Shown here: positions 24,807 to 64,000 of the stretch, in pieces
How the letters are laid out: each line of letters opens with the position of its first letter
Position numbering within the stretch: position 1 is the stretch's first letter
Assembly (NCBI RefSeq): GCF_964194025.1
Contig: NC_134482.1
Coordinates: forward strand, 40,734,001-40,798,000
Direction of reading: 5' to 3'
DNA from: Convolutriloba macropyga
Taxonomy: Eukaryota
Length of the DNA: 64,000 nt
Notes under the pieces: generated by a model
The model's database searches: none
Told to the model about the DNA's origin: nothing
What the model saw: only the letters and a program-made list of their open reading frames with translations
Position numbers and translations under genes: made by a program

Positions 24807-24847
24807 ATTGGTTTTGTTTTGGAAATCAATTTTATGACTTAGAAAAT

Positions 24848-24863: not shown

Positions 24864-25473
24864 TGTTGGGTTATGGACTTTCGCAAGCGGAATAAAAAGC
24901 GTTTTTAACTAAGTAAAAGAATTAATTTCTCAAAAATTGAGAGAATAACAAAATGATATTTTACAATAGAATTTAGAGATTTACAGGAGAGATCTGATTA
25001 TTAGATCAAGATGGTGATTTGAATTTGGGGATGAAAAAGGACTCAAAAATCAGCTGTACATATACCCCTTATCAGTGTGAAAAAGTCAAGATACAAAACT
25101 AATCTTAGCACCGTGATTTATGGTGGGGGTCGCAAGGGTTACCCAATATGGTTTGCTTGTGCAAATCAGTCGCAAAGGGAACCATAAATGGAATGCATTT
25201 GCACTTTTCTAAGAATTCATTCACACTTCCGGAGATATCATCATCATTTAATACATGCTGGGAAGATTTTACATCACTTAATCTAACTCTAATAATAGTT
25301 ATCTAGATTCCCCAATTTGAACCGAATATTGATTCTCAGCACCATTTCTTGACGATTCATTTATATAATTTCTTTGATCGAAATCATATTGCTTGTCTTT
25401 CTAATCTGGTAAGTCAAATTTTCTTTCTAATTTTCACTAAGTTTAAGACTGTAGTTTGATCGATATTCTAACA
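24864..25473 (-). repeat. 5' LTR (610 bp)
   Basis: tgttggg...tctaaca on the + strand; adjacent to the PBS. Confidence 0.97.
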
Positions 25474-40900: not shown

Positions 40901-42096
40901 CAGGTTATGGTCCAGACCCAAATTGGTTTATGATCAGACCCAGTCGAGCGCACAATCGTGTGTTCCCAGACCGAAATTAAAGGGTCTGGCCGGAAGTTCG
41001 AGCGCACTACGGTCTGGACGATGGTCTGGAGATGGTTTGATCAAAAGTAATTTTGGTCTGAAAAGTCTGGACCATGGTCTAGAGATGGTCTGATCAGAGA
41101 TCAATTGGGTCTGAAAAGTCTGATCAAAGGCGGATTCGAGCGCATTTGAGTCTGATCAGAGGCGACTTCGAGCGCAATTGGGTCGGATCATAACCTCTTC
41201 GAGCGCAATTGGGTCGGATCATAACGTCTTCGAGCGCAATTGGGTCTGATCAGAAATGTTTTTGAAAGCAATTGGGTCTGATCAGGGACAGTTTTGAGCG
41301 CCCTATTTTTTCTTTTTTTTTTGTTTTTTTTTTACTGAGAGATGTTGACTCCGCCAAGAAGAAGAAGCAACAATAAAGCAGCTTTCTGATCAGAGACTCA
41401 TCAGAAGTCCGATAGCTCTGATCAGAAAACAGGATTCCAGCTGATATCAAAGGCCGGTCCCCTTCAGAAAAAATTTTGATCAAATGGAGACCACGATGTT
41501 TCTTATGGAAAGCTGTCTAAACTCATCCATTCAGTCAGAAAAACACTAAGCGGTACTCTAGAAAAATTTAATCCCAACAGTTGGGTTTCCTTTTCTTCAG
41601 CAATACCTTTATAATTGATTTTTCCTTAGATGAATTAAATACTGCAACTATCAGTTTTTATGAAAGGAATATATTATAGCAAAATTAAGCGATTTGTCCG
41701 TAATTTAAATATATCTCTGATCAGACTATTGCGAGCGCACTTGAGTCTGATCAGAACCGGTTTCGAGCGCGCTTCAGTCTGATCATAAATGGCTTCGAGC
41801 GCAACTGGGTCTGATCAAAAACTCTTCGAGCGCACTTGAGTCTGATCATAGTCTGATTAAGGTCTGGGCAATGGTCTGATTTTGAGTCTGGACCATGGTC
41901 TGAAGTTCGTCTTATCAGAACACCTTCGGTATGAAAATTCTGATCAGAGACCCTTTGTGTCTGGAAAGGCTGATCAGAGGTATCTTGGGTCTGGAAAGTC
42001 TGATCAGTGTTAATTTCCGTCTGGAAAGTCAGGTCAAAAATAATTTCGGTCTGGATAGTCTGATCAGACAAAAACTTGGGTTTGCAACTCAACCTG
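40901..42096. mobile_element. Non-autonomous DNA-transposon-like element (CAGG termini, hAT-like) with phased 30/31-bp subterminal repeats
   Basis: Left caggttatggtccagacccaa versus reverse complement of right end caggttgagttgcaaacccaa; many TCTGATCAGA and TCGAGCGCA motifs; AT-rich core ~41490-41715; TSD not found. Confidence 0.65.
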
Positions 42097-42245
42097 GAAT
42101 TTAAATCTGATTGCGCTTGTATTACAAAAACATATTGTTATATACTTATGGCGGCCTCAGTTTTTTGCAAATAGTTTTTTTTCAAGGGTTTTCTATTTTT
42201 ATTAACTTAACAAGACTATGGCAAATGTTCACGGAAAAGGGAACC

Positions 42246-42555
42246 CAGGGTGAGGTGCGCAACCCAAACCAGCTCTGATCAGACCGTCCAGATCAATATC
42301 GGCTCTGATCAGACAGATTTGAGTCGCGCACTGTGGGTGCCAGACCGACTTTAGTAGCGCACTGTGGGTGCCAGACTGACTTGAGTAGCGCACTGTGGGT
42401 GCCAGACCGATTTGAGTAGCGCACTGTGTGTGCAAGACCGACTTGAGTAGCGCACTGTGGGTGCCAGACCGACTTGAGTAGCGCACTGTGGATCCCAGAC
42501 CGACTTGAGCAGCGCACCGTGGGTGCCAGACCGACATGAGTAGCGCACTGTGAGA
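42246..42555 (+). repeat. Truncated second family member: TIR-like end plus ~7.5 copies of a 31-bp minisatellite
   Basis: cagggtgaggtgcgcaacccaa at 42246; unit gagtagcgcactgtgggtgccagaccgactt over 42320-42552. Confidence 0.9.
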
Positions 42556-44560
42556 CTGTATTTTTTTTGAGCAAAGACTCTTTACTGTGTACTTTTTTAT
42601 GCCTTCTTCTAACCTGTTTTTAGCATCAGGTCACCACTGCCTCCAAATCACACAGGGAGTGTTTTCAAGAGCGGTCCCCAAAGAAGCTATTCGCAAGAAA
42701 AATTATTTGCAAGATTTTTTGAACAACGGATTAGCCCATATGACTTTTGTGTCTGGACAGCTTTAGGCTTTCAGCACAAAGAGGAAATTGAAGCTGTAAT
42801 AAGTCACTGTGACGTGCCTAGTTAAAATAGTTTAGAAAAAAGACAAATTTCATTTAAGAAACAACGGAAGTTCTTGCGTTTCCGAACTACACGTGTCTCC
42901 TGTAACACTTTGGTAGGTGCTGAACAAACATTTTCGTTGTTTTTCATTTTTTTTCGTAAAAAGATAAATCGAAAATGTCCGCCAAAATTCGACACGTAAA
43001 CCAGAATTATAGCACTCTTGTCGCATTGACCGCCTTAAGTCTACTCAGAAAATCATTTTGCTTTTTGAATTAATAATGGATGATAGAAGCGTTTAAGATC
43101 AGTTCTCAGTTTTTCTAGTTTTGTGTGTTGAATTTCGCCTGCTTTTCTTCGATTACTTTTGCTTTGTCACTTCTTCTCTTAGCCATTGACGGTCTATTTC
43201 GGGCGAAGATCAATAATAGTGCATAGACGTTCTCTAATGAAATGGGCATCAAGGATGTAATGATGAAAACTCTCGCTTTCTTCGGAGGCTCCTCTGCATC
43301 ACTTCTACATTCCGTTGCTTTTTCAGATCTCAATGAAAAATGCACATTCTTGTTAAAAGTCCTTTTTAATTGAGAAACTATTTGTTTGCTTAAGCATTGA
43401 AAAAAGTATTTCACGGTTATGAACTCCTACCACTAATTTTGCGCTTATTAATTGTTGTTAGAATATCAAAATTGGTACAAACATACGCTGAATTGTTGTT
43501 CTCTACTGTGATCAAAATTCCCAAATTTCACGGGCTTCAGCGTTAAAATTTTTACGACAACCGATCGTTCTCATCAGAAATTTTTCGTTTTAGGTTCATT
43601 CTACTCTGAACATTTAAATCCATAAAACTTGTTAATTGCGTGTAATTTTTTGCTGATCCTTAGATTATTTATAAGCTTGAATAGGTTTTTGAAAAACAGA
43701 CTGTGAATGAAAAGAAGTTCGTGATGTTGTAGAATATAAAGGATTCATGAACAAAGATGACTTCAGAATACAAGTTGCAATCTCCTATTGCAAGTAAAGG
43801 AGCCGGAAAATGAACAGAAAGAAAGACATACGCAAGCAATAAAAATTGTATTACAAAATGTTATTTTATTTTTTGCACCAATGTAGCTATCTAAAACACG
43901 TATGACTTATGGCATTCGCAACACAAAAAACGGTATTGAAAAAATTGATGAAACCTGCAGAATTTTTCTTCCGACGATGTCTTCAAAAATATTTATTAAC
44001 CCTCGTTTTACATGCAACACACATATTCATTCCACGCGCATACTCATTTCTGTATACTCTCCACAGGCATATTCATTTCTGTATAGCAAGGCTCGAAAGA
44101 ATCGAAAAAAAAGACATCTACAAAAGAAAATTTTTGATTGATACACACACACCTANNNNNNNNNNNNNNNNNNNNNNNNNNNNNNNNNNNNNNNNNNNNN
44201 NNNNNNNNNNNNNNNNNNNNNNNNNNNNNNNNNNNNNNNNNNNNNNNNNNNNNNNNNNNNNNNNNNNNNNNNNNNNNNNNNNNNNNNNNNNNNNNNNNNN
44301 NNNNNNNNNNNNNNNNNNNNNNNNNNNNNNNNNNNNNNNNNNNNNNNNNNNNNNNTTCCAAAAATTAAAAAAAAGCAAAAGTACTTAACTTTTACAATGT
44401 AAAAAAATAATAAGATAGCCCCGTAAGTACATTAAGCCAATCCATAAAAAAGTTGATAACAAAAAAGTGTACGTGATTAACGAAGAATTAAAAATTATAG
44501 GAAAAAAATCAGTATTAATTTTATTAGACTTCGACTTTATTTACATTGAAAGTACACGTT

Positions 44561-44921
44561 TCACAAATAATTATTGATAAAATTTAGAAATTTAACATCA
44601 TGAAAATTGATCATGATTGTTTGAAGAAATATAAAAAGTTGCAATGCAGCTAATATTACGTGAAATCCACACAAATTATTCGTTTTCTGAAGTGGACGTT
44701 GTATTCTTTTCTGATGCATGTCATTCAAATGTTTTTTGTGTGAATGTTTGAGCTAAAGGATTTGCACAATTTTTTTTCTGTTGAGTCGAGCAAATCAATA
44801 AGTAATTGTCCAATGATTTGCAACTTTTCTTCTTGAAGAGGTGATGATGACAGCGAAGCTGAATTTAAAGCTTCTGCTCTGTATTTTCTTCAATAGGCTG
44901 TCTCAGGAAAGTGCTATCTAT
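44561..44921 (-). pseudogene. Maverick adenain-like cysteine protease remnant, copy A
   Basis: Manual translation: FAVIITSSRRKVANHW...QRPLQKTNNLCGFHVILAALQLF...NFINNYL*; catalytic H and Q..CG motifs present. Confidence 0.78.
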
Positions 44922-45266
44922 GGCAAACACTTTTTCTTTGCCTTATTTCGAAAGTATCGTTAAAGCATGATCTGTAACTTTAAAATCAATCTGAGACGAT
45001 TCGTTTTCTTCAAAAAACAACATTTTTTCGATGCTTTACCTCGAAAAAAATGTCTGCTTGTTTATTTATGTCATTAGAGTCAGTATGGGAATTTTGATGG
45101 AAGAAAATTTTTACCATGAAGAGTGACAAAAGTCAGGGAAGTTACATCAACGAAAAAGTTTGTATTAGTTCTACCCCCACTTACGCCCATTTTCCTTTAA
45201 GAAATGATTTGGTGAATAGAATGAAAAGTAGGTGTTGATGTTATCATGAATTGTTATCATCTTTCA

Positions 45267-45703
45267 ATTCGTTACCATGAATTGAACTGTATAACTATTC
45301 AATTGGTAAAGTTTTTGGTCTCGCAATGTAGAACTAAATGTTGGAAATGTAGGGGAAAGATTATCGACTTTAAATTTTGATCAGTTGGAACGGTTTCAAA
45401 AATCTCCTGACAATTTTTGTTTTCAGGAGGAACTTTCGTACTTTTGAATTTTTAGCTGTTTTACGGCTTTGAATTTTTGATTTCTGGAAATCAAAAAGTC
45501 AAAGCCGTAAAACAGCTAAAGACTAAAAAGTACGAAAGTTACTCCTGAAACAAAACTTGTCAGGAGATTTTTGAAACCGTTCCAACTGATCAAAGTTTAA
45601 AGTCGATAATCTTTCTCCTACATTTCCAACATTTAGTTCTACCACGGGCGACCAAAACTCTTACCAATTGAATAGTTATACAGCTCAATTCATGATAACG
45701 AAT
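45267..45703. repeat. ~437-bp fold-back palindrome (two ~218-bp arms, 2-nt centre at 45485-45486)
   Basis: tttttgatttc-tg-gaaatcaaaaa centre; arms pair out to attcgttaccatgaattg / caattcatgataacgaat with scattered mismatches. Confidence 0.96.
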
Positions 45704-46330
45704 ACATTTTGAAGCATCTTGAATTGAAGTTAGATCAAAAACAAGCACATATTAGTTCTTAAAAAGACGTCTAGTTAAAGCCGGAAGTCGTTTCGTGAAG
45801 TTCATTGCTTACATTGTTGTTGCGTATAACCTAAAATTGTTGGTCGTAGAAATTTAGACATTCATTTTACCTCCGTAAAGTCCTATCTCTATGTTCTCTT
45901 AACGCAAAAATTTGGTAACAGAGAGTTTTTGCTGGAAAAAGTCCCCTGAAATTGTGTTCATAACTATCAATTGGTCTTTTCAGAGCATTTTCCCTTAGTA
46001 AACTGGTTCTATCCCTAAGGAGCAATAAACGTACGCGCAGTTGTTTCCATAAGGTTATAAAAAACTGTTGAAGAATTAATTGGTATTTGTGAGTGTGATG
46101 ATACACACCTTTAACAATAGCATTTTTTGTGAATAGGGAACATTCGAGGAAAGAAAACGTGAGAATTGTACGAGACAATGTAAAAATTATGTTTTGCACA
46201 AACGAATTGTAGTTTTTTTGTAATTGTAAGCAGCAATTTTTCAAATGGAGTGAATCAGTTGCTAATTTACTGCTAAAGATAACTCCACTTTTCCAGAAAA
46301 ATCTTTGCGATATCCGACGCTCAATATTTT
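45555..46330 (-). pseudogene. Maverick major capsid protein remnant, copy A (C-terminal half)
   Basis: ECSLFTKNAIVKGVYHHTHKYQL; VFDLTSIQDA (~45710-45742). Confidence 0.72.
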
Positions 46331-46615
46331 TGTAGTGTTATTGAAAAATCTTTCTTTATATTCACTTCTGTACTGGTTGTTTTTATAATTTTTCAAAATT
46401 TAAAGACACATTACAAAATACCATCAAACTACAAAAGTACTATACGTTTACAAACCAATAAAACAAAGAGAAAGCAGCCTAGGTACATATAGCTTAGTTG
46501 TAACAAAGTCGAAAACAAAAGAGTGTGCGTAATTAACGAGGAAAGAAAGATTTCAGGAAAAAATCAGTATTAATGTTATTAGATTTCACATTTAATTACA
46601 TTGAAAGTACACATT

Positions 46616-47013
46616 TCACAAACAATTATTGATAGAATTTAAAAATTGAATTTCATGAACATTGTTTATGATTGTTTGAAGAAATATAAATAGTTGAAAT
46701 ACAGCTAAGATTGGGCAAAAATCCACACAAATTAGCTATTTTCTGACGAGGTTGTTGTATTCGTTCCTGAAGCATGCCATTCAAAATTTTTTTGAGTGAA
46801 AGTTTACGCTGAAGGATTTGCACTTTTTTTTCTGTAGAGTCGAGCAATCATTATCCAAGGATTTCCAACTTTTTTGAAGATTTGAAGAGGTGGCCATTAC
46901 AGAGGCTGAATTAAAAGCTCACTCGGGGCACAATGTGCTAGAAAAGGTCGAATGAAACGGAATTTCTTCTCCGGATTTTGTTAAAAAATCTGTCTTAAGA
47001 AAGTACTATCTAT
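46616..47013 (-). pseudogene. Maverick protease remnant, copy B
   Basis: ORF 46653-46847 contains IQQPRQKIANLCGF; homologous to copy A. Confidence 0.72.
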
Positions 47014-47344
47014 ACAAACAGTCTTTCTTTAATTTATTTTGCAAGTGTTGCTAGTGCTTGAACTGTGACCGTAAGAAAAGTCAAATGATTCCTTTTCTTC
47101 AAATAACAACAATTATTTTGACGCATTACCTTGTTAGAAAAAAACAGTGTTTGCTGGGCTATTTTTGTCATCACCCAGTATGGAAGTTTTGATGGTAGAA
47201 AAAAATTACAATGAAGTGTACCAAATATTTGGAAAGTAGCAACAACGAAAAAGTTTGTATCAGTTCGCCCCCCGTTTACGTCCATTTCCATATAAGAAAA
47301 GATTTGTTGAATGGTAAGAAAAGTGGGTGTTTATAACTCATGGA

Positions 47345-47960
47345 GCAATAAAAGTATATGCAATCGTTTCCATATGGTTTTAAAAAGCGTGTTGATGAAT
47401 TAAAAGGTATTTGATAGTGCGATGACACGCACGGATAACAATAGCATTTCTTCTGAATAAGCCAAAAAACAGTTTTAATTAAACGTGAGGATTTTACGAG
47501 AACATGTAAAAATTTTGTCTTGCGCGAAAAAGATTTAGTCTAATTTTTGTAAATGGAAGCAGCAACTTTTGAAATGCAGTATATCAAATGCTAGTTTTCC
47601 CCGATAGATATTTCCATTTTTCATTAAAAGTTCTTTCTCACAGTCTAAAAACGGATTTTATTCAAAGTCTTTGGAATCTGTTTCAATTTCATGTCCATGA
47701 AAAGCCAAAAAACCTTCATTGTTTCGGACTGAAGTGTTGAGTTCACTGTAAAGTGAATCCTTGTGTCCGTAGATTCTATATGAAATTGTAAGCTTGCTGG
47801 TTACTCAGATGCATTTCGGAGGCTGGGAAGCGTGATTGAAGCAAAGTTTTCACGTGAGTTAGATAGTGTAAATTATAGTTTTAAAAGTCTTTCCAATATC
47901 CGACGCTCCTTAATTTCATAGAGTCAATAAAAAACTTCTCTTTCGTCCCTTTCTGTACTG
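47345..47960 (-). pseudogene. Maverick major capsid protein remnant, copy B (N-terminal/central part)
   Basis: YLTHVKTLLQSRF..EMHLSNQQ; YRGKLAFDI..KLLLPFTKIRLNLFRARQNFYM; HMETIAYTFIAP, read across frameshifts. Confidence 0.78.
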
Positions 47961-48249
47961 GTTTAGGCGTTGAAGAAGTTGAAAAAATAAAATACTAGAA
48001 AAGAACGAATTAAAAAAGCCTAAAAATTGTAAAAGCCCAACAAAAACAAAAGTTTTTTACTTGACAATTATTTTAAAAAAGTACTCTGATAATTTATAAA
48101 GAATGCACTTTAGGTACATTTAGCCTTGTCGTAAATACAGCCGTGAAAAAAACAGTGTGCGCAATTAACGAGGAATTAAAGTTTCAGGAAAAAAATCAAT
48201 ATTATTATTTTTAGACATCTACTTTTTTTTACCTTGAGTTTCAACATTC

Positions 48250-48652
48250 CGCAAAAAAAACAAATAAAACGTTTTGTTAATGGATTATCAAGAACAAAGG
48301 TCAATTTTTTTTGAAGAAATGGAGATATATTTGAAACACAGCTAAGATTGTGTAAAATCCACGCAAATAAGTCTTTTTCTGAAGTAGACTATGCATCTTT
48401 TTCTGATGCTTGTTTTTCAAATGTTTTTTATATGAATGATCGAGCTCAAAGATCTGCATAATTTTACATTCTGTTGAGTAGAGCAGTCATTATCCAACGA
48501 TTGCAAAGTTCACTACTTGAAGAGGGGACGATGACAGCGCAGCTGAATTTAAAGCTGATTTGATACACAATGTGCTGGAAAAGATCCGATAAAACCGAGG
48601 TTCTGCTCTGGAAATTGTTCAGTAATCTGTCTCAGGAAAGTCCTATTTATGG
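48250..48652 (-). pseudogene. Maverick protease remnant, copy C
   Basis: Nucleotide homology to copies A, B and D; NRWIMTARLNR. Confidence 0.68.
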
Positions 48653-49074
48653 CAAACACTTTTTTCTCTGCCGTATCTCGCAAGTAATGTTAATGCATGA
48701 TCTATAACTTTACAATCAAGCTCATATGATTCGTTTTCTTCAAAAAGCAACAGTTATTTGCCGCCTTACCTCGTTCGAAAAAAACTTTGTTTGCTTGTGT
48801 GTTTTTTGTCATCAGAGTCAACCTGGGACTTTAGATGGAAGAAAAAAATTGAAATGAAGATTACCAAACCTTGGAAAGTGTACATCAACAAAAAAATTTT
48901 GTATTATTTCTCCTCCGTTTACATACGTTTTCATTTAAGAAATGATTTGGTGAATAGAACGAAAAGTGGATGTTGATAACCCATATCCTTAACCGTCCCA
49001 GAAATCAATATTTCCAAGCCGTAAAAAACTTTAAAAAAAGTGCGCAAAGATTCCTCCTTGAAACAAAATTTGTC

Positions 49075-50070
49075 AGAACTTTTGGCTACGTTTCCAAACG
49101 GATCAATGTTTAAACTGGATTGTCTTTCTGCTAGAATATTTTCTCTAGCATCATGAAGTGAAGTGAGATGAAGTACAAGCACTTAGTGTCTCTGGAAGAG
49201 ATGAATAGGTAAGGCGGGAGATAGTTCCATTAAGTTCAATGCTTTCATTGTTGTTGCGATTGCCTGACATTTGAGATATCCATTTTACCTCCACCTAAAC
49301 GAAGTCCTGGTAACGCAAGGGATTTGCTGGAAAATATCCCCTGAAATTTTGTTCAATACTACCAAATACTTACAAAAAATTTTTGGAGAATCTCTAAAAG
49401 AACTTTTTTTATAAACTGGTTCTGTCGCTTAGGAGCGAAAAACGTACGCGCAGTTGTTTCCATAAGGTTTTAAAAAGCGTGTTGATGAGTTAAATTGTAG
49501 TTGATACTGTGATGATAACACGGTTAACAATAGCTTTTCTTCTGAATAAGCAACAAAAAAGAACTTTAAGTAAGCATGAGGATTTCACGAGACCATGTAA
49601 AAGTTCTGTCTTGCTCGAACAAGATTTATTCTGTTTTTTTTTTATATTTTGAAGCAGCAACTTTCAACTGGAGTAGCTAATTTGCTAATTTACGCAATAA
49701 ATCATTCCCTTTTTCAGGAGAACTTCTTCCTCACAGTCTTAAAACGGAATTTTTTGAAAATTTTTGGATTTTGTTTCGTTTTCAATTCCACGACAAGCCA
49801 AAATATTTTAATTGTTTCTGGTTGAAGTGTTGAATTCATTGTAGAGTTGAATTCTTTGCAAACTAAAGCCTTGTGTCTGTAGATTCTATATGAAATTGTA
49901 AATTTTCTGGTTGCTCAGATGTATTTTATATGATGGTAGGAGCGAGTGCAGCGAGATTTTCACGTTAGTTAGTTAGTGTAAATCATCGTTTGAAAAGTCT
50001 TTCTGATATCTGACGCTCCTCATTTTTATAGAGTCGTAAAAAAACATCCCTTTCGTCCTCTTCTCTACTA
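49075..50070 (-). pseudogene. Maverick major capsid protein remnant, copy C
   Basis: LMETTARTFFAPKRQNQFI; FQGIFSSKSL / NP region; LVLHLTSLHDA...LNIDPFGNV. Confidence 0.75.
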
Positions 50071-50359
50071 GTTGTTTTAAGGCGCTGAAGAAGTTGAAAA
50101 AGAAAACAACACGAAAAGAACGATTTAAAAAACACAGATGTTAAAGTCGCGTCTTAAAAGCCCATCACATTACAAAGATACTTTACGTTTACAATAAAAA
50201 AACATAAAAAGAAACCCCTTAAGTACAATTAGCCTTGTCGAAAATCTAGCCAATTCAAAAACAACAAAATGTGTTGATTTAAAAAGGATTCAAAGATTTT
50301 GTCGGAAAAAATAATAACTTGATGAGATTTAGACTTTATTTACAATGAATTTAAACATT

Positions 50360-50715
50360 TCACAAATAATTACTAATGAAATTTAGTAATCGGACATCAA
50401 GAACATAGGTCATGTTCGTTTGAAGAATAATAGATAGTTGAAACACAGCTAAAACATTGTATCTTTTTTTGATGCTGGCTTTTCAACTTTTTTTTATGTA
50501 AATGGTCGATATCAAGGACCTGCACAATTAACATTCTGTTGAATCGAGCAATCATTATCCAAAGACTTCCAAATTCACTACTTGAAGAGGCGATTATGAC
50601 AGCGCAGCTGAAGTTAAAGCTGACTTGGGGCACAATGTGCTGGAAAAGAACCAATATTCCCATATTTCTGATCTGCAATTCGCTCAACAATATGTCTGAG
50701 GAAAGTGCTACCTAT
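50360..50715 (-). pseudogene. Maverick protease remnant, copy D
   Basis: STFLRHIVERI...YGNIGSFPAH (G.FP.D motif) and CAVIIASSSSEFGSLWIMIARFNR. Confidence 0.75.
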
Positions 50716-51395
50716 GACAAACAATTTTTCTTTGCCGTTTTTTAATAGTATCGTTAATGCATGATCTGTAATTTTACAATCAAGCTCAAATGATTCGCTT
50801 TCTTCAAAAGCAAAAATTATTTGACGCTGTACCTCGTTCGAAGAAAACTTTGTTCGCTTGTTTGTTTTTGGCATCAGAGTCCCTATTGGATTTTTGATGG
50901 AACAAAATAATTAAATTGGAGATTAACAAAAGTTAGGAAACGTGAATCAGGGAATGATTTGAAGAAGCAAATGAAAAGTGAATGTTGATATTCTAAATCC
51001 CATAGATGTCCCATAAAACAATAATTCAAAGCCCAAAAAAACTAAAAATCAAAAAGTACAAAAAATCCTCCTTACAACAAAAATTGTCAGGATCTTTTGT
51101 CAACGGTTCCAAACGGATCAATGTTTAAAACTGATTGTCTTTCTCCTTGAGCATTTATTTAGTTCTTCCAAAAATCTTTTATAATTGAACACTTTCATCG
51201 CTGATTACATGAGAACAATCATTTTTTCCAGCATCTTGAAGTGAAGTGAAATGAAATACAAGCATTTAAGGTCTCTGGAAGAGATGAATAGGTAAAACGG
51301 GAGTTCGTTTCATAAAGTTTATTGCTTTCATTGTTGTTGCAAATGCCTGACATTTGAGACATATAGCTTTGCCTCCACCTCAGCGTAGTCCTGGT

Positions 51396-54300
51396 AATGC
51401 AAGGGATGTGATTGAAAATATCCCCTAAAACTGTGCATTACTACCAAATTTTTCTTTTTGTAGCGTCTTTAAAAACAATTTCCTTAATAAACTGGTTCTA
51501 ACCCTAAGGAGCAATAAACGTACGCGCAATTCTTTCCATAAGGTTACAAAAAGCTTGTTGATTACAAATTGGTTTTTCATAGCGTGATTATACACAATGT
51601 TAACAATAGCATTTCTTCTCAATAAGCAACAGCCAAGAACATAAGGTAAAACTTGAGATTTTTCAACAATGTGCTGGAGAGGTCCTGTATTCCCATTTTT
51701 CTGCTCAGGAATTCGTTCAACAATATGTCTCAGGAAAGTGCTATCTATAGCAAACAAATTTTTTTGCTGTATTTTGCAAGAATCTTAATTTATGATCTCA
51801 CTGTACATTCAAGATGAAATTATTCCTTTTCTTCAAAACGCAACAATTGTTTGAAGCTTTACCTCGATCACAAAAAAAAACATTCTTTGCGTTTTTTTTG
51901 TCATCAGAGTCAGTATGAGAGTTTTGGTGGACGAAGATACTTACAATATAGAGTACCAAATGTTGTACCAAAAAGTACAAAAATACCATAAAACAAATAT
52001 TGTCAGAGATTTTTGGCAACTGTTCCAAACGGATCAATGTTTAAAGTGGACTGTCTTTCTCCTAGAATATTTAGTTCTTCCACCGCGGGCCGAAAAACAT
52101 TTCTAACTGAATAATTTACCTCTGATTTTATGACAACGATTTTTTTTTCCAGCATCTTCAAGTTAAGTGAGGTAAAACACAAAACATTAATGGTTCTGAA
52201 AGAGATGACTGCGTAAAACTGGTATTCGTTTCATGAAGTTCGTTGCCATATTTGTTGCTGCGAAAGCCCTACATTTAAGACATCGATTTGACCTGCGCGA
52301 AGTTCTCGTAACAGAGGGGTTTGCTTGAAAATGTCCCTTGAAATTTAATTCATAACTACCAAATTTGTCCAATTGGAACATCGTTAAAATCTTTTCCCTC
52401 AATAAACTGGTTTTATCTCTAATGAAAATTAAACTTATGCGCAATAGCTTCCGAAAGTTTTTGAAAAACCTGTTGAGGAGTTAATTGGTATTTGATGGTA
52501 CGATGATAAACACCGTTAACAATAGGATTTCTCGGAATAAGGAACAGCCAAGAATTTTAAAGAAACGGGAGGGTTGTTCCCGACCATGTAAAAACTGTGT
52601 CGTTAACGAATAATTTTTAGTCTTTTTTTGTAATTGGAAGCAGCAAATTTTCAAGGGAATGCAAGGGATGTGATTGAAAATATCCCCTAAAACTGTGCAT
52701 TACTACCAAATTTTTCTTTTTGTAGCGTCTTTAAAAACAATTTCCTTAATAAACTGGTTCTAACCCTAAGGAGCAATAAACGTACGCGCAATTCTTTCCA
52801 TAAGGTTACAAAAAGCTTGTTGATTACAAATTGGTTTTTCATAGCGTGATTATACACAATGTTAACAATAGCATTTCTTCTCAATAAGCAACAGCCAAGA
52901 ACATAAGGTAAAACTTGAGATTTTTCAACAATGTGCTGGAAAGGTCCTGTATTCCCATTTTTCTGCTCAGGAATTCGTTCAACAATATGTCTCAGGAAAG
53001 TGCTATCTATAGCAAACAAATTTTTTTGCTGTATTTTGCAAGAATCGTAATTTATGATCTCACTGTACATTCAAGATGAAATTATTCCTTTTCCTCAAAA
53101 CGCAACAATTGTTTGAAGCTTTACCTCGATCACAAAAAAAATCATTCTTTGCGTTTTTTTTTGTCATCAGAGTCAGTATGAGAGTTTTGGTGGACGAAGA
53201 TACTTACAATATAGAGTACCAAATGTTGTACCAAAAAGTACAAAAATACCATAAAACAAATATTGTCAGGGATTTTTGGCAACTGTTCCAAACGGATCAA
53301 TGTTTAAAGTGGACTGTCTTTCTCCTAGAATATTTAGTTCTTCCACCGCGGGCCGAAAAACATTTCTAACTGAATAAATTACCTCTGAATTTATTTCAAC
53401 GAATTTTTTTTTCCAGCATCTTCAAGTTAAGTGAGGTAAAACACAAAACATTAATGGTTCTGAAAGAGATGACTGCGTAAAACTGGTATTCGTTTCATGA
53501 AGTTCGTTGCCATATTTGTTGCTGCGAAAGCCCTACATTTAAGACATCGATTTGACCTGCTCGAAGTTCTCGTAACAGAGGGGTTTGCTTGAAAATGTCC
53601 CTTGAAATTTAATTCATAACTACCAAATTTGTCCAATTGGAACATCGTTAAAATCTTTTCCCTCAATAAACTGGTTTTATCTCTAATGAAATTTAAACTT
53701 ATGCGCAATAGTTTCCGAAAGTTTTTGAAAAACCTGTTGAGGAGTTAATTGGTATTTGATGGTACGATGATAAACACCGTTAACAATAGGATTTCTTCGG
53801 AATAAGGAACAGCCAAGAATTTTAAAGAAACGGGAGGGTTGTTCCCGACCATGTAAAAACTGTGTCGTTAACGAATAATTTTTAGTCTTTTTTTGTAATT
53901 GGAAGCAGCAAATTTTCAAGGGAATGCAAGGGATGTGATTGAAAATATCCCCTAAAACTGTGCATTACTACCAAATTTTTCTTTTTGTAGCGTCTTTAAA
54001 AACAATTTCCTTAATAAACTGGTTCTAACCCTAAGGAGCAATAAACGTACGCGCAATTCTTTCCATAAGGTTACAAAAAGCTTGTTGATTACAAATTGGT
54101 TTTTCATAGCGTGATTATACACAATGTTAACAATAGCATTTCTTCTCAATAAGCAACAGCCAAGAACATAAGGTAAAACTTGAGATTTTTCAACAATGTG
54201 CTGGAGAGGTCCTGTATTCCCATTTTTCTGCTCAGGAATTCGTTCAACAATATGTCTCAGGAAAGTGCTATCTATAGCAAACAAATTTTTTTGCTGTATT

Positions 54301-56445
54301 TTGCAAGAATCTTAATTTATGATCTCACTGTACATTCAAGATGAAATTATTCCTTTTCTTCAAAACGCAACAATTGTTTGAAGCTTTACCTCGATCACAA
54401 AAAAAAACATTCTTTGCGTTTTTTTTGTCATCAGAGTCAGTATGAGAGTTTTGGTGGACGAAGATACTTACAATATAGAGTACCAAATGTTGTACCAAAA
54501 AGTACAAAAATACCATAAAACAAATATTGTCAGAGATTTTTGGCAACTGTTCCAAACGGATCAATGTTTAAAGTGGACTGTCTTTCTCCTAGAATATTTA
54601 GTTCTTCCACCGCGGGCCGAAAAACATTTCTAACTGAATAATTTACCTCTGATTTTATGACAACGATTTTTTTTTCCAGCATCTTCAAGTTAAGTGAGGT
54701 AAAACACAAAACATTAATGGTTCTGAAAGAGATGACTGCGTAAAACTGGTATTCGTTTCATGAAGTTCGTTGCCATATTTGTTGCTGCGAAAGCCCTACA
54801 TTTAAGACATCGATTTGACCTGCGCGAAGTTCTCGTAACAGAGGGGTTTGCTTGAAAATGTCCCTTGAAATTTAATTCATAACTACCAAATTTGTCCAAT
54901 TGGAACATCGTTAAAATCTTTTCCCTCAATAAACTGGTTTTATCTCTAATGAAAATTAAACTTATGCGCAATAGCTTCCGAAAGTTTTTGAAAAACCTGT
55001 TGAGGAGTTAATTGGTATTTGATGGTACGATGATAAACACCGTTAACAATAGGATTTCTCGGAATAAGGAACAGCCAAGAATTTTAAAGAAACGGGAGGG
55101 TTGTTCCCGACCATGTAAAAACTGTGTCGTTAACGAATAATTTTTAGTCTTTTTTTGTAATTGGAAGCAGCAAATTTTCAAGGGAATGCAAGGGATGTGA
55201 TTGAAAATATCCCCTAAAACTGTGCATTACTACCAAATTTTTCTTTTTGTAGCGTCTTTAAAAACAATTTCCTTAATAAACTGGTTCTAACCCTAAGGAG
55301 CAATAAACGTACGCGCAATTCTTTCCATAAGGTTACAAAAAGCTTGTTGATTACAAATTGGTTTTTCATAGCGTGATTATACACAATGTTAACAATAGCA
55401 TTTCTTCTCAATAAGCAACAGCCAAGAACATAAGGTAAAACTTGAGATTTTTCAACAATGTGCTGGAAAGGTCCTGTATTCCCATTTTTCTGCTCAGGAA
55501 TTCGTTCAACAATATGTCTCAGGAAAGTGCTATCTATAGCAAACAAATTTTTTTGCTGTATTTTGCAAGAATCGTAATTTATGATCTCACTGTACATTCA
55601 AGATGAAATTATTCCTTTTCCTCAAAACGCAACAATTGTTTGAAGCTTTACCTCGATCACAAAAAAAATCATTCTTTGCGTTTTTTTTGTCATCAGAGTC
55701 AGTATGAGAGTTTTGGTGGACGAAGATACTTACAATATAGAGTACCAAATGTTGTACCAAAAAGTACAAAAATACCATAAAACAAATATTGTCAGGGATT
55801 TTTGGCAACTGTTCCAAACGGATCAATGTTTAAAGTGGACTGTCTTTCTCCTAGAATATTTAGTTCTTCCACCGCGGGCCGAAAAACATTTCTAACTGAA
55901 TAAATTACCTCTGAATTTATTTCAACGAATTTTTTTTTCCAGCATCTTCAAGTTAAGTGAGGTAAAACACAAAACATTAATGGTTCTGAAAGAGATGACT
56001 GCGTAAAACTGGTATTCGTTTCATGAAGTTCGTTGCCATATTTGTTGCTGCGAAAGCCCTACATTTAAGACATCGATTTGACCTGCTCGAAGTTCTCGTA
56101 ACAGAGGGGTTTGCTTGAAAATGTCCCTTGAAATTTAATTCATAACTACCAAATTTGTCCAATTGGAACATCGTTAAAATCTTTTCCCTCAATAAACTGG
56201 TTTTATCTCTAATGAAAATTAAACTTATGCGCAATAGTTTCCGAAAGTTTTTGAAAAACCTGTTGAGGAGTTAATTGGTATTTGATGGTACGATGATAAA
56301 CACCGTTAACAATAGGATTTCTTCGGAATAAGGAACAGCCAAGAATTTTAAAGAAACGGGAGGGTTGTTGCCGATCATGTGAAAACTGTGTCGTTAACGA
56401 ATAATTTTTAGTCTTTTTTTGTAATTGGAAGCAGCAAATTTTCAA
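51396..56445. repeat. Four near-identical 1262-1265-bp units arranged A-B-A-B
   Basis: Unit starts aatgcaagggatgtg at 51396, 52658, 53923 and 55185; diagnostic variants alternate. Confidence 0.97.
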
Positions 56446-56815
56446 ATGAAATAAATCAATTGTTAATTTACCGCAAAAAAGGATTCCACTTTTCAAAAAA
56501 AATTCTTCCTCGCAGTCTAAAGCCGGACCTTTTTAAAGACTTCGGGTTCTGATTCATTTTCATATCAGTGAGAAGCCAAAATACTTTTGATGTTTCTGGC
56601 TGAAGTGTTAGATTCATTGCCAAGTAAACCTTTGTGTTGTTAGATGATATTTGTAAACTTGCTGTTTGCTCATTGCATTCTGAGTTTGGGAAGATTGAGT
56701 GCAGCAAGTTTTGCACGTGAGTTAAATACTGCGAAATCATTGTTTTTGAAAGTCATTCCGATATCCGACGCTCCTTATTTCCATAGAGTCGTTAAGAAAT
56801 CTTCCCTTTTGTCAA
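55790..56815 (-). pseudogene. Maverick major capsid protein remnant, longest contiguous copy
   Basis: YLTHVQNLLHSIF (NN.LHSLFS motif); FCGKLTIDLF; LGCSLFRR..VYHRTIKYQL; FKGHFQANP (F.G....NPF motif); CRAF..NF..IP...LFQNH. Confidence 0.8.
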
Positions 56816-57016
56816 GTGACTATAACTTGAAGAATTATATTTCNNNNNNNNNNNNNNNNNNNNNNNNNNNNNNNNNNNNNNNNNNNNNNNNNNNNNNNNN
56901 NNNNNNNNNNNNNNNNNNNNNNNNNNNNNNNNNNNNNNNNNNNNNNNNNNNNNNNNNNNNNNNNNNNNNNNNNNNNNNNNNNNNNNNNNNNNNNNNNNNN
57001 NNNNNNNNNNNNNNNN

Positions 57017-57860
57017 TAATATCTATCTGTTGTAATTTTAATTGAAATGCTAATTTCATCCAAAACATTACGGGAATCAGCTTCTTGAACATTCAATTCG
57101 TACCAAAACAGTAATTTTCTCAAGCCGGAAAGTGTACTTTCGAAGGTTGCTATCGATAGTATATATAGAGTTCATTTTATCCGAGAAAAATATCGTTTCC
57201 AATTCAACAATGTTGGATGATTTTTGGAAGATCTTCTCGATTAAGAGGTCATTTCTATATTCTTCCTACACATAATTGTTTACGTAAAGTCTTTTGTCCA
57301 ACATCCGTTGCAATGGATTTTTATTTTCTCCCAGTGCAAAAACTTTCTATTTTTAAAAAACGTTGCAATGGATATCAGTGGACTATCTTACAATGATTGT
57401 TTTGACAAATGAAGAACAAAAAAAATAGGAAGTCAACTCTGAACTGTTCTTTCTTCTAGAATGTCTTTACTCTAGTAAGCCTTTTTAATTGAAAGGCAGG
57501 CAGACTCTTAATTCTCTGTAAAAACAAAACCATAAAAACTGTTCCCTTGCAGCTTTTAAAGTTTTGAATCACAATATCTATTTGGCAGCAAATAGTTGAA
57601 GTCTTCCAATGAAGATCGGTCGGATTTGAAAACTGCTTTTGGACTTATTCGCCAGATTCTACATGAAATTTTACATGATTTTGTTGGGGCTGTAGAAATT
57701 TCAGCAGATCAGGGAAATAATTACCATTTTATGCTACTGCCATTCTCAATCTCCAGTCTTCTAAGACATGTAGCTTTATAATTATTTTGCCTTAACTTTT
57801 AAATTTGTTATTACCATATCTTTAAAGTAACTGATTGTTATTCAGTTGTCAATAGTTGCA
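57017..57860 (-). pseudogene. Possible Maverick minor capsid (penton) remnant
   Basis: GD(W)RMAVA..IIFP-like N-terminal motif (~57710-57760); FKKLI...DEISISIKITT C-terminal motif (~57025-57092). Confidence 0.5.
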
Positions 57861-57879
57861 GTAAAAAGAAGCATGACTC

Positions 57880-58300
57880 TGGTAGTTTTCGATTTTGAGT
57901 AAACTGAGAGAATATTTGATAGGGATTTGAGAAACTTTATGGATGAATTGTGTTGTGATATACACTTCTCTTACAGACCGACTCCAGGACAACATTTCTA
58001 ACAGTAGAGAACACTCAGGATTTGCATAAGATCAACTGCAGTAATCAGAAATTGATTACTCAGGTTCGCTGTATGTTATTGAGCAACATTGTCCACCTAC
58101 AACCGTAAACTTTGCCAAAAGTTCTTTAAAAAATTAGATCCTATCCCAGTAGTTTTTAAGGAGGAGGAAAATTTGGATGTCCAAAAGGCACTTGGTTAAC
58201 CTGTCAATGAAGATAATATCTGGGATTGTAGTAGATACCCTTGTCGGCACAAGAAAACACTCCGCTGCGCAAAGAAGAAAAATTATTCTTACGGAATTTG
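57880..58300 (-). pseudogene. Possible retroviral-type integrase remnant, large deletions
   Basis: VDNVAQ...QFLITAVDL and QFIHKVSQIPIKYSL resemble the Maverick integrase start and end; weak. Confidence 0.35.
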
Positions 58301-58599
58301 GTCTCCTAAACTTCTAGAAATATACAATACTGTCATATTGTACAGCACTCCAATTCAATTTTAAAATTGTCTTTGTTTTTCTACAAATCAGAGAAACAGT
58401 TCATCAGAAAATGAGTAAGTTGAAACATTTTTGTACAAGGGTTACACAGTTATTTTTGTTTCAATTGATTTGTTTTTTTTTAATATTAATTTTGTATTTA
58501 CTTTCTAAGGCAAAATTATACAGAGACACACTGTTTTGGCTATCCTTTTGGTTTGCTTTCTTTTTCATTTTTTGAGGCTCATGATTTTGTTTATTGTTT

Positions 58600-59080
58600 G
58601 CACTGTAATTCAAATGAACAATTTTTTCCTTCATCTCAATGATAACGTTTATATGACAGAACATACAGATAGAGGGCTAAATTTGGATGATTTTGACCCT
58701 TATGATGTTATTCAAGAAGGGAAATTGTGGATAGGTTTTTGGACTACTTGTAATAAAGAATTAGATCTTATTCGGTTTAATTTTTTTGTTATACGCCTAA
58801 TTTGGCTTGTTGAGTAGTTAGAAAAGCACTGGCAACAATTTGTTTAGGGAAAACGTTCATGGTTGCAAATTTTTCAAGTACAGTTGAATATAGTTTACGA
58901 TCACCTAAAATATGAATATGATAATTTCAAGAAGCGATAAAAAACTTGAATTAAACTTGGTCCAATGATATCTGGAAGATCTGATCTTAAGCATGAATGT
59001 AAAACGAGTAAAAAGATTTTGCTGAAACTGCAACCGCGAAAGGAAACGAAGTCTCAATGAGGAAATTTTAAAGAGCATTT
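58600..59080 (-). pseudogene. Possible packaging ATPase remnant
   Basis: RFLFAVAVS..FYSFY and KICNHERF..IVAS-like segments; Walker A not retained. Confidence 0.38.
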
Positions 59081-61174
59081 TAGTTGATAACAGTACCTAA
59101 AGATCAGATAGAGTGTTGGAAATTACTAATATTATTGTGCTAAAATCTCCTAGGGATGTTCTGCACGAACAACATTTAGATCACAATTGAAAGAATCGTA
59201 TACCAAAGCAGCCTCTATGCCTTACTTTAATATTGATTTGAATTTTAGATATGGATTTGACTCTCTTAGCACTCGGCGTTCTTCAATTTTGTAGTAATAG
59301 TGAATTACTGGACCAATATCCTCAAACTTTAACCTTCCTGAACACAAACCACAAACAACAAACTACGTTTTGTGTGATGAGGACACAACAATTGTACTCT
59401 GTGATTGTTCCAAAAACATTGAACTTCAAGACAATATTCCTAAGAAATAGTCCCAGAGTTTTTATACAGTTTTCACAATAATTCATTGTAAAACTGCTTA
59501 GAGCAATACTGCAGGAACTTCAAAAACAGGCGTAATAAGTATTGAGAGGAAATTCATATTGCTAACACTTTGAACAATTAGGTGGTAATGGACAAATTTT
59601 ACATTATTTTGTTGAGGCTGTAGAAATTTCAGCAGATCAGGGAAATAATTACCAATTTATGCTACTGCCATTCTCAATCTCCAGTCTTCTAAGACATGTA
59701 GCTTAATAATTATTTTGCCTTAACTTTTAAATTTGTTATTGCCACATCTTTAAAATAATTGGTTGTTATTCAGTTGTCAATAGTGGCGGTAAAAAGAAGC
59801 ATGACTCTGGTAGTTTTCGATTTTGAGTAAACTGAGAGAACATTTGATAGGGATTTGAGATATTTTATGGATGAATTGTGTTGTGATATTCACTTCTCTT
59901 ACAGACCGACTCCAGGACAACATTTCTAACAGTAGAGAACACTCAGGATTTGCATAAGATCAACTGCAGTAATCAGAAATTGATTACTCAGGTTCGCTGT
60001 ATGTTATTGAGCAACATTGTCCACCTACAACCGTAAACTTTGCCAAAAGTTCTTTAAAAAATTAGATCCTATCCCAGTACTTTTTAAGGAGGAGGAAAAT
60101 TTGGATGTCCAAAAGGCACTTGGTTAACCTGTCAATGAAGATAATATCTGGGATTGTAGTAGATACCCTTGTCGGCACAAGAAAACACTCCGCTGCGCAA
60201 AGAAGAAAAATTATTCTTACGGAATTTGGCCTCCTAAATTTCTAGAATTATACAATTTTTGTCATATTGTACAGCACTCCAATTCAATTTTAAAATTGTT
60301 TTGTTTTTCTACAAATCAGAGAAACAATTCATCAGAAAATGAGTAAGTTTGAACATTTTTGTACAAGGGTTACACAGTTATTTTTGTTTCAATTGATTTG
60401 TTTTTTTTAATATTAACTTTGTGTTTACCTTCTATGGCAAAAATATACAGAGACACACTGTTTTGGCTATCCTTTCGGTTTGTTATTCTTTTTCATTTTT
60501 TGAGGCTCATGATTTTGTTTATTGTTTGCACTGTAATTCAAATGAACAATTTTTTCCTTCATCTCAATGATAACGTTTATATGACAGAACATACAGATAG
60601 ATGGCTAAATTTGGATGATTTTGACCGTGATGATGTTATTCAAGAAGGGAAATTGTGGATAGGTCTTTGGACGACTTGTAATAAAGAATTAGATGTTATT
60701 CGGTTTAATTTTTCTGTTATACTCCTAATTTGGCATGTTGAATAGTTAGAAAAACACTGGCAACAATTTGTTGAGGGAAAACGTTCATGGTTGCAAATTT
60801 TTCAAGTACAGTTGAATATACTTTACGATCACCTAAAATATGAATATGATAATTTCAAGAAGCGATAAAAAACTTGAATTAAACTTGGTCCAATGATATC
60901 TGGAAGATCTGATCTTAAGCATGAATGTAAAACGAATAAAAAGATTTTGCTGAAACTGCAACCGCGAAAGGAAACGAAGTCTCAATGAGGAAAATTTTAA
61001 GCGCATTTTAGTTGATAACAGGACCTAAAGATCAGATAGAGTGTTGGAGATTACTAATATTATTGTGCTGAAATCTCCTAGGGATGTTCTGCACAAACAA
61101 CATTTAGATCACAATTGAAAGAATGGTATACCAAAGCAGCCTCTATGCCTTACTTTAATATTGATTTGAGTTTT

Positions 61175-64000
61175 AGATATGGATTTGACTCTCTTAGCAC
61201 TCGGCGTTCTTCAATTTTGTAGTAATAGTGAATTACTGGACCAATTCCCTCAAACTTTTACCTTCCTGAACACAAACCACAAACAACAAACTACGTTTTG
61301 TGTGATGAGGACACAACAATTGTACTCTGTGATTGTTTCAAAAACATTGAACTTCAAGACAACATTCCTAAGAAATAGTCTCAGAGTTTTTATACAGTTT
61401 TCATAATAATTCATTGTAAAGCTGCTTAGAGCAATACTGCAGGAACTTCAAAAACAAGGCGTAATAAAGTATTGAGAGGAGATTCATATTGCTAACACTT
61501 TGAACAATTACGTGTTAATGGACAAGCAGCAAAAGAATGGATAATATTGGTTCAAATACGAATTTTTGAAATCCAAAATATTCGGATTGCAATGGGGCTC
61601 TGTTCCTTTTATTAATTTTCTTTTCGTCAACTAAAGACCAGAATGACTTAAAATCAAAATTCAGTGATTAAAAGATCAATTTTACAAGCAAAGAACAGTC
61701 GATGAACGTATTTTAAATTTCATCGGAAAGCTCTAAGTTTTTTTTGCTGCATCACTGTAATTGCGTAAAATTGTTTTTGATTTTCTGATTTGTACCAATA
61801 TATGTTGTCCTTTTGTTGTCTTTTGACTTAATCTCTCTAGGATAGTACTAATTGGTTTCTAAGGCAGCTACAAGATAATCAATTTAATGAAAGTGTAGTT
61901 AAAAGCCTATGCTTGTAATGACATCAAGATGTCTATTTCAAAAAATATTAAATATTNNNNNNNNNNNNNNNNNNNNNNNNNNNNNNNNNNNNNNNNNNNN
62001 NNNNNNNNNNNNNNNNNNNNNNNNNNNNNNNNNNNNNNNNNNNNNNNNNNNNNNNNNNNNNNNNNNNNNNNNNNNNNNNNNNNNNNNNNNNNNNNNNNNN
62101 NNNNNNNNNNNNNNNNNNNNNNNNNNNNNNNNNNNNNNNNNNNNNNNNNNNNNNNNNNNNNNNNNNNNNNNNNNNNGATAGATAGGGGGAGACTTTGCAT
62201 CCTGTTTTAAACGAATCACAATGTAATTTTGATTGCGTTTTCATGTTTTAAATAATGGTTCTTTGGCTTTGATACCTGACGGGTTTTCTTAGATTTTGTT
62301 GGACTTCTGGACGTTTTCGCGTTTCTGATATTGTTTTTTTACTGCCACAATATCAAAATAATACGAGCAATCTATATTGTTGTTGCAGTTGAAGGTTATT
62401 GTAATTGATAATATTTGATCTTTTTATTGAGTAGTTTAAAATATTAGCTACAAGTGATTAGTTTTATACCTTTCAGCTGAAAGCTTAAGATTTCTGTGAT
62501 TTTTTGTTTTCGAGAAAAATTTAATGGTTTTGTGAGCTTTGCCATTTTTTAACTTATTTTTGTCAATTCGCAGCGTTGTCTCAGCAATGAGAGAGTTTGC
62601 GTCCTTTTCAAATGAATTAGAACGAATTTCTGATAGCGGTTTTATACTTTATTTAACTCTTGTTGGCTTTTAGCTTCTAATGTTTCTTTTTTGCTGTCTT
62701 GTGTCACTTTATCATAAAATTAACCTGTAGAATATCAAATCAAAGCCGCTGAAAAAAGATGCCATTGGTTCTATTCAATCTTTTTAGTGAAGAGAACTGA
62801 ATTTTAATTGGTTGGAGAGCCTTTCATCTCAAAATTTAATTGAATTTTCATTGTCGTTTCTGTTTTTCTTTTTTATTCTCATAACTCATTATGTTACAGA
62901 ATAGTTCTCATTGGTTTTATGGAAGTGTATGTAAAACTAAATATTTGATAGTTTTTGATTTTCAAGATGTTGAAATTATTTGTTTTCAAAAAATGCCTTT
63001 TCTGTTTCTTTTGTTTACCGGTATTTTTTTCTCCTTGAAGACAATTACCATATCTTTTTTGATGAGGTGCAAGTTAAATGAACCAATTGTTAAAACAAAT
63101 ATAACAATCTTTTTCAAACAGTGTTTGAATTTTTCAAAGTTTTCAACCTGATCCACATTTGGTAGACAATTAAATCAGAAATGTGGATAAAAGCGGTTGC
63201 AAACGCACACTACCAAGCCTCCACAATTACATCTGTAATTCTATTTACAATCTGACTGCTCTTATAACAATGGAATGAGTTATAAAACTAAAGCAAATTT
63301 TGGTAATATGCATACATGTGATTGGATATTCGGTAAAAACTTGATTAGGCGAACTTGATTAGAAAGAACGTTTGTAGCCATTATTCTAAAATTCTGACGT
63401 AAAACTTTGTTCAAACTAGACGAGTGGTTTTGCAATATCCGCTTACTGTTTCACTGGTACTCCCGGACGAGCGTTACCCATTTATATAGTCATTACTTAA
63501 TTAATAGTGATTACTTGAGACCCAATTCATAGACTTATTTATTCTAGTGAGCAACGATATGGGTTCCAATTGTACTCTTAAGCCTCGATCGGTAATGAAT
63601 TAAGAGCGGCTATCTAGCTATTAGATACCGCGTGAAAATGAATTATTTTCAGGCTGGGAAAGAAAAACACAATCAAGTACCTTTACTTGACAAATCCTAA
63701 GTTGGCCACACAATAGAGGAAAATATGAACAAACTATTTTTGTGCAAATAAGCTTGGAGTTTTTTTGCCCGCCTTTTGCAAAAAATGTTGGTCTGGGAAA
63801 AATCTTTTATTGTCCTCAAGGGAAAGGTAAATAACATTTATGGAATTATTTTATTATTATCATCGTCTCGATACCGATCAAAACGATCAAAATATTAAGA
63901 CAGTTCTGATTTTGAAGGTAAAAGCAAAACCGTTTCCTGTCGAGATAACTTTTTCCAAGATCTTTTCAAAGGTGATATTTTCTCTATTTCCGGGGTTGCC
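61175..64000 (-). pseudogene. Protein-primed DNA polymerase B remnant
   Basis: IVIFVLTIGSFNLHLIKK at 63055-63110; the DNA tttgttttaacaattggttcatttaacttg is a few changes from FGFNSGSYDL (ExoII). FLQY...YY segment at ~61410-61465. Contains a gap. Confidence 0.5.

Follow-up and report, generated by a model that had tools for sequence, protein, structure and literature searches.

The window analysed here is a stretch of 64,000 nucleotides (G000:C16:40734001-40798000) from the 1.18-Gb genome assembly of Convolutriloba macropyga. Most of its last part, 44356-64000, consists of the decayed remains of a Maverick (Polinton), a virus-like element. These form a minus-strand array (44376-57336) of five old capsid-to-protease units and four recent 1263-bp repeats, joined to two tandem copies of a plus-strand block with the packaging ATPase, and are followed by an unrelated repeat and the end of a host receptor gene (Table 1). 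The GC (guanine plus cytosine) content of this part is 32-34%, and, as a preliminary description of the DNA had noted, it contains no long open reading frame (ORF): outside frames that cross runs of N, none exceeds 156 amino acids (aa). Pfam finds no viral family in the stop-free frames (100-156 aa) of the window itself; the relic is visible via its relatives only.

Parts of the relic and the reference family

The references used throughout were the unchanged proteins of a young Maverick family of the same genome, and it was these proteins, rather than the relic, that were folded. Searching at the DNA level with a single capsid piece yielded 44 matches, from the best 40 of 259 candidates, several of which are young Mavericks with AGTAGT ends and terminal repeats of 776-932 bp that are 99% identical; three of the five single copies in which the ends were read (C15, C8 and C1) have 6-bp target duplications. 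Thus, the intact relatives for which the preliminary description had recommended a search do exist. Young Mavericks also occur head-to-tail, with a period of 17.1 kb and 99% identity (G000:C7:8430001-8480000, L017-L021), and others (C5, C8, C9) carry internal tandem duplications of 1.1-3.6 kb, including capsid-protease or ATPase blocks.

In Pfam, genes of the young family match the rve integrase (E 1.6e-12) and Pox_A32 (5e-5; 23.3 bits against a cut-off of 22.8), as well as, under the cut-off, DNA_pol_B_2 (9e-5) and Peptidase_C5 (0.005); the last is matched at E<=0.01 by 24 of 72 protease homologues, the reference protease lying below the curated cut-off. The capsid has 1393 database homologues, none of them named among the 120 matches listed. 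Its model, based on 84 sequences (predicted local distance difference test, pLDDT, 65), matches double jelly-roll capsids (Foldseek E 4e-12), including those of Paramecium bursaria chlorella virus 1 (PBCV-1), Sputnik and mavirus. The VIA comparison with the PBCV-1 capsid gives Z 20.9 and a root-mean-square deviation (rmsd) of 3.6 over 350 aligned residues, and every one of the first 15 VIA rows is a viral capsid or scaffold protein; in the viral fold library, no adintovirus major capsid came first, the top row being a bracovirus protein (22% identical), and a family not listed there may fit as well. For the protease, the model (pLDDT 90) is best matched by the adenovirus protease (Z 14.4, rmsd 2.3, 129 aligned); a sequence search of solved structures gave only E 0.22, so that the fold search decided its identity. 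The proposed fold check, as carried out on these references, therefore yields a double jelly-roll and an adenain fold. The 270-aa ORF of the family encodes a putative minor capsid protein, judging from its position and from a hint in Atlas (score 0.97), where 26% of one cluster carries the label Sputnik V18/19. The labels penton, PW and piRNA cluster are used in their usual sense.

Profile hidden Markov models (HMMs) built from the young family, another check that had been proposed, detect in the window the capsid (best E 7e-21, 33 rows), the protease (3e-21, 10 rows) and the ATPase (3e-23, 4 rows), a few rows being duplicated by overlapping tiles; the reversed window, which served as the control, has no match. 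The references match the relic also in tblastn (down to E 3e-26) and nhmmer (down to E 7e-89). Seven ORFs of the family are recovered, with identities of 30-55% in amino acids and about 68% in DNA, and within each block of the relic their order is the local order of the young family. Maverick-derived sequence accounts for about 15,836 of the 19,645 bases if the whole ATPase block is included, and ends at 61488. It is thereby upheld that a Maverick/Polinton fossil broken by frameshifts is present, that its capsid is a double jelly-roll and its protease an adenain, and that it traces to one integrated element.

The individual capsid motifs on which that claim was built are found on the minus strand (NLLHSIF at 56710, GKLTIDLF at 56472, KLLLP.TKIRL.L.RAR at 47568, VFDLTS at 45742, and FKGHFQANP four times, at 52342, 53606, 54869 and 56132). 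So are, for the protease, G.FP (50652, 48587) and NLCGF (44677, 46733); only Q..NLCGF has no match as written, the Q being three residues away. All these motifs sit in nearly invariant columns of the capsid (84 sequences) and protease (72 sequences) alignments. However, they do not join into one gene, as had been supposed, being borne by separate copies (units A, D and E). Nor are all the genes unidirectional: the capsid and the protease lie on the minus strand, whereas it is the plus strand that carries the ATPase, preserved there as two copies of its C-terminal two thirds (59012-59558 and 60940-61488). The protease is represented by four fuller remnants and short 5' pieces.

Table 1. Features of the window between 44376 and its end (nt, nucleotides of the reference gene)
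Feature	Positions	Strand	Content
Old unit E	44376-46301	-	capsid (reference nt 556-1320), 95-aa ORF, protease remnant, 3' untranslated part; nhmmer, tblastn
Fold-back in unit E, 437 bp	45267-45703		between capsid end and 95-aa ORF; arms 91% alike
Old unit D	46399-47947	-	capsid (reference nt 230-851, remainder deleted), 95-aa ORF, protease, 3' part
Old unit C	47979-50060	-	capsid (reference nt 227-1183), 95-aa ORF, protease, 3' part
Old unit B	50109-51657	-	capsid (reference nt 695-1321), 95-aa ORF, protease, 3' part
Four recent head-to-tail copies of a 1263-bp segment	51393-56445	-	spans end of unit A and start of unit B
Old unit A	55457-57336	-	3' half of 118-aa ORF, nearly whole capsid span (broken), 95-aa ORF, protease 5' end
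Inversion junction	57336-57337		middle of 118-aa ORF (minus) fused to middle of 135-aa ORF (plus)
Inverted block, copy 1	57337-59595	+	end of 135-aa ORF; 134-aa, 155-aa and 87-aa ORFs; packaging ATPase, C-terminal two thirds; all broken
Inverted block, copy 2	59594-61525	+	tandem duplicate of 1.93 kb with 96% identity to copy 1; the copies overlap by 2 bases where they join; matches to Maverick stop at 61488
Unrelated old dispersed repeat	61490-63564	+	common to the sister locus; no Maverick match
Host 7TM-receptor-like exon	63610-64000	-	3' region and last codons (from 63987); continues beyond the window (L022:1-669)

Other genes of the family were not found. In 44356-64000, tblastn, nhmmer and HMM searches found no integrase, although they did detect the Copia integrase at 22.8-23.2 kb, and no protein-primed DNA polymerase B (pPolB); the 48-sequence profile of the 270-aa ORF found no minor capsid. 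The weaker minor-capsid, integrase and pPolB motifs of the preliminary description hence correspond to no remnant on either strand by tblastn, nhmmer or profile HMM, while pieces of 120-300 nt from other genes of the same age were detected by the same searches. Pfam found no minor capsid, integrase, pPolB or other such match in the three minus frames of 61490-64000, and 463 kb around the window contain no integrase, minor capsid or polymerase of the family, only the sister relic described below.

Sister locus and divergence of the copies

The junction between the minus-strand array and the plus-strand block falls within two ORFs, at reference nt 179-189 in that of 118 aa and at 215-231 in that of 135 aa. 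As all these genes share one strand in the young families, it is the plus block that is inverted. The junction is taken as assembled, contigs from four DNA runs leaving 56958-57253 uncovered; a run of N (56844-57016) lies nearby, within the capsid of unit A. The same arrangement recurs in a sister relic 325 kb away (G000:C16:40465937-40474108), which comprises one unit of the same layout: a correctly oriented terminal-repeat remnant (E 7e-18), the protease, the capsid, the same inversion junction (G000:C16:40468690-40468718) as that at 57336/57337, a shorter ATPase block that ends at the same place as the one in the window, the old repeat and a second receptor exon. The left flanks of the two sites have nothing in common. 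Since the breakpoints are shared, the inversion and the truncation would have preceded a segmental duplication that included the host exon.

This exon has features of the seven-transmembrane (7TM) receptors (Atlas 0.94, with 10 of 10 family matches falling in one clan), and the genome contains 108 matches to it. The copy next to the sister relic (L041:8049-9108) is 94% identical over an island of 1064 bp with a sharp edge, the flank being 66-72% identical. The two copies differ in 19 synonymous versus 2 non-synonymous codons, at 11 of 81 four-fold sites and by 4.8% in the 3' part. An upstream exon was found for one copy only; for the copy next to the window, none was found within 80 kb.

Did the capsid-protease units multiply while the element was alive, or after its death? 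With each copy compared separately in the reference frame, differences among the old copies are spread evenly over the first, second and third codon positions: 0.299/0.280/0.298 for the capsid (six copies, 15 pairs), 0.273/0.272/0.278 for the protease (10 pairs) and 0.281/0.246/0.275 for the ATPase (2 pairs, the recent pair left out). The ratio of the third to the first and second positions is 1.02-1.04 among the old copies, with P=0.61 for three disjoint capsid pairs. Two young capsids, by comparison, differ by 0.072/0.023/0.384, and old and young capsids by 0.257/0.244/0.419. The even differences indicate that the copies multiplied after the element had died, whereas the third-position excess between old and young places the branch from the source to the young family under purifying selection, but not the branching among the relic copies. 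Every capsid copy carries 10-26 frameshifting indels, and each of five protease copies 3-8; the capsid of unit A has 26, along with 9 stops in 330 codons. With frameshifts and stops in every copy and no codon-position bias, the locus is a Maverick-derived relic and is not classed as a functional Maverick element; as far as can be told from sequence, it makes no protein and is immobile. No RNA data set is listed as containing 51400-57000, a result that speaks neither for nor against expression.

In an unrooted capsid tree of six old and six young rows, from which the recent repeats of A and B were left out, units A-E form a group (support 98) to which neither the sister copy nor any of the six young copies belongs, and B, C and D are grouped (95). 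Corrected distances order the events: 0.42-0.44 for the sister split, 0.32-0.40 for A, E and BCD, and 0.27-0.34 within BCD. Judging by divergence, the fold-back in E (91%), the duplication of the ATPase block (4%), that of the 1263-bp segment (1%) and that of its dimer (0.1-0.3%) came later. The 1263-bp copies, separated by 1, 4 or 12-15 mismatches, with one small piece identical to B, alternate (1 resembling 3, and 2 resembling 4), which implies one duplication and then duplication of the dimer.

Joints, proposed history and alternatives

Two joints remain readable. At the 1.93-kb duplication, the copies overlap by 2 bases; at the 1263-bp repeat, non-homologous capsid positions are linked by a 3-base insert that repeats adjacent sequence. 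Both joints fit polymerase-theta or template-switch repair, which is the likely pathway as far as two joints allow one to judge. Tandem copying is not specific to the capsid, an array of long interspersed nuclear element (LINE) pieces in the window and the young Mavericks showing the same. Kilobase-scale tandem duplications were seen in 10 of 20 other fetched loci, covering 73,225 of 490,000 bases, of which one 17-kb case weighs heavily.

Taken together, these observations make it very probable that the locus is a neutral relic of one Maverick insertion that was reshaped by host DNA repair. Its history can be envisaged as follows. A Maverick of a lineage related to the young family, an ancestry visible in the matches, would have inserted, presumably once, beside the 7TM-receptor gene. 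An internal inversion, whose junction and shared endpoint are seen at both sites, would then have flipped the ATPase-integrase-minor-capsid block, cutting two genes, and the parts beyond the ATPase would have been lost or replaced by another repeat; the placing of this step in the sequence of events is our inference. Next, the relic and the receptor exon were duplicated as one block, as the two sites 325 kb apart attest. At the present site, the capsid-protease end was copied head-to-tail over several rounds, giving the five old units that are seen to have decayed without selection. The recent rounds, directly apparent from the near-identity of the copies, duplicated the ATPase block once (about 4% diverged) and brought the 1263-bp segment to four copies (1%, then 0.1-0.3%).

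Several points weigh against this history. The true source lineage was not found, and the young families, at about 68% identity, are no closer to the old copies than these are to one another. No terminal repeat was found in the window, where a run of N (44156-44355) covers the expected start of the right repeat, and the target-duplication ends of the relic are lost. The order of events is relative only, with no calibrated rate and no age in years; the 20 comparison loci were picked by repeat matches, not at random; and the repair pathway depends on the two readable joints, the old ones being too decayed. The receptor island is 5-14% diverged between the two sites and the adjoining relic 28-33%. 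Such low divergence of the receptor needs gene conversion or constraint, for which the proposed history gives no account.

Of the alternatives, one would regard the opposite-strand layout as original to a Maverick lineage now extinct, not as damage after insertion. In vertebrate Mavericks, the capsid-protease module and the ATPase do occupy different strands, with diverging modules in one toad, according to passages of PMC8097293, and the relic lineage does differ from the young family at third positions. However, the junction interrupts two ORFs which the young families have intact, and all young copies displayed have the ATPase and the capsid on one strand. Moreover, none of the best 40 of 343 candidates joined both sides of the junction outside the window, a list that is partial, as it also missed the sister locus. 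A native order is thus quite improbable.

It has also to be considered that the array might have been kept or amplified as a small-RNA memory, similar to a piRNA cluster, against an active Maverick family, perhaps being read through from the receptor gene. Coding remnants of transposable elements in the window are on the minus strand for 12,981 of 15,121 bases, young Maverick copies exist to be silenced, amplification continued until recently, and 387 of 16,922 26-mers (about 2%) would pair with two young copies at <=3 mismatches (control, 0). Yet none of these 26-mers is a perfect match to the two young copies and 97 match at <=2 mismatches, while the recently amplified unit is no richer in matching 26-mers (0.65% vs 0.84%). 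The strand bias comes down to four independent elements, of which one has parts on each strand, and outside the window the tally is reversed (14,200 plus vs 7,339 minus); furthermore, the LINE relic was amplified alike. Such a role would be very improbable.

The identity of the recent repeats (98.7-99.8%) could be taken to betray artefacts of assembly. The differences alternate among the copies, however, and the 1928-base go-back at the 1.93-kb joint (59593->57666) is present in 4 of 4 runs, which come from 2 samples of 1 study and are possibly the assembly's own source; the old units cannot be artefacts in any case. An artefact is, therefore, extremely doubtful. The summed contig depth over the 1263-bp unit is above that beside it, a comparison that gives no copy number.

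Independent insertions of different Mavericks at one hotspot might explain why the five units are as far from one another (22-31%) as from the young copies (26-29%). This is hardly credible: there is no third-position excess, the units form one group, C and D have a common capsid start base, and all units share one orientation, with no terminal repeat separating any of them; barring a badly wrong alignment, the codon-position test refutes it. Finally, the model of the preliminary description, a single complete, unidirectional 20-kb element decayed in place, is right as to real capsid and protease remnants on one strand, but is next to impossible and is refuted by the gene map, given the ATPase on the opposite strand, the repeated units, the lack of integrase, minor capsid and polymerase by three methods, only about 5 kb of distinct Maverick sequence, and last 2.5 kb that are not Maverick at all.

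Surroundings and relation to known systems

Repeats crowd the window, among them LINE pieces (8-12.7 kb), a Copia element and two old arrays. Besides the Maverick array, an old head-to-tail array on the minus strand (13451-37131) consists of decayed LINE reverse-transcriptase pieces with units 66-98% identical, and its copying history is like that of the Maverick relic; the Copia element (19950-25473; long terminal repeats of 616 bp, 96.6% identical) sits inside it. Nested 31-bp tandem arrays in an inverted arrangement (40926-42583), which do not match the Maverick terminal repeat, are probably a non-autonomous DNA transposon. The dispersed repeat next to the relic belongs to a family without a name, about 3 kb long, with copies of about 70% identity on many contigs; its three minus frames match nothing in Pfam. 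Downstream of the window, at 18-55 kb, a satellite of 176-180 bp forms two arrays (L023:7978-10000, L024:1-8148, L103-L104), which suggest a heterochromatic setting. About 110 kb upstream, a distant second Maverick-like family is present (G000:C16:40612881-40627192; L091:7881-10000, L092, L093:1-2192), in which one domain resembles a double jelly-roll (E 3e-5) and another matches endonuclease VII (E 3e-9); it has no match in the window.

Decay is the rule among animal Mavericks. Passages of the respective reports describe 96% of vertebrate Maverick loci as degraded (PMC8097293), placental fossils as having stops, frameshifts, no terminal inverted repeats and only some core genes (PMC9683012), and nematode copies as mostly incomplete (bioRxiv 10.1101/2022.07.12.499685). 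The present relic resembles such fossils in its broken double jelly-roll capsid, adenain protease and A32-type ATPase, in the absence of terminal repeats and in its partial core set. Unlike them, inasmuch as these passages describe decay and loss, it is internally inverted, lies at two linked sites and has had its capsid-protease end copied in tandem for a long time. The reference family, in turn, agrees with the description in the passages of PMC8097293 (the order integrase, minor capsid, small ORF, major capsid, protease; AGTAGT ends; 6-bp target duplication), and has what the relic lacks: terminal repeats of 0.8-0.9 kb, integrase, polymerase, minor capsid, a single ATPase-capsid strand and third-position bias. 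In Caenorhabditis elegans, polymerase theta-dependent repair yields head-to-tail duplications of at least 1 kb, as a passage of PMC7368036 states, and the copies described here are similar in being kilobase-scale and head-to-tail, with a short overlap or a templated insert; in the present case, it is two joints that point to this pathway. A literature search turned up no account of a Maverick relic whose capsid-protease part had been amplified in tandem, most subscription papers being outside its coverage, so that this is no proof of absence.

The relic is real, rearranged and neutrally amplified, and is of a known kind; by itself, it is no new biology. It does provide a worked case of what can befall a Maverick after death, namely inversion, truncation, segmental duplication together with a host gene and tandem copying, with the steps ordered by divergence. 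It also shows that counts of capsid or protease matches overstate the numbers of Mavericks, nine or more capsid matches at this locus coming from one insertion. Further, it draws attention to a genome in which kilobase-scale tandem duplication is common and in which a Maverick family with a strongly conserved capsid is still spreading. Should it be true that small RNAs from the array silence this young family, host control of Mavericks would become testable.

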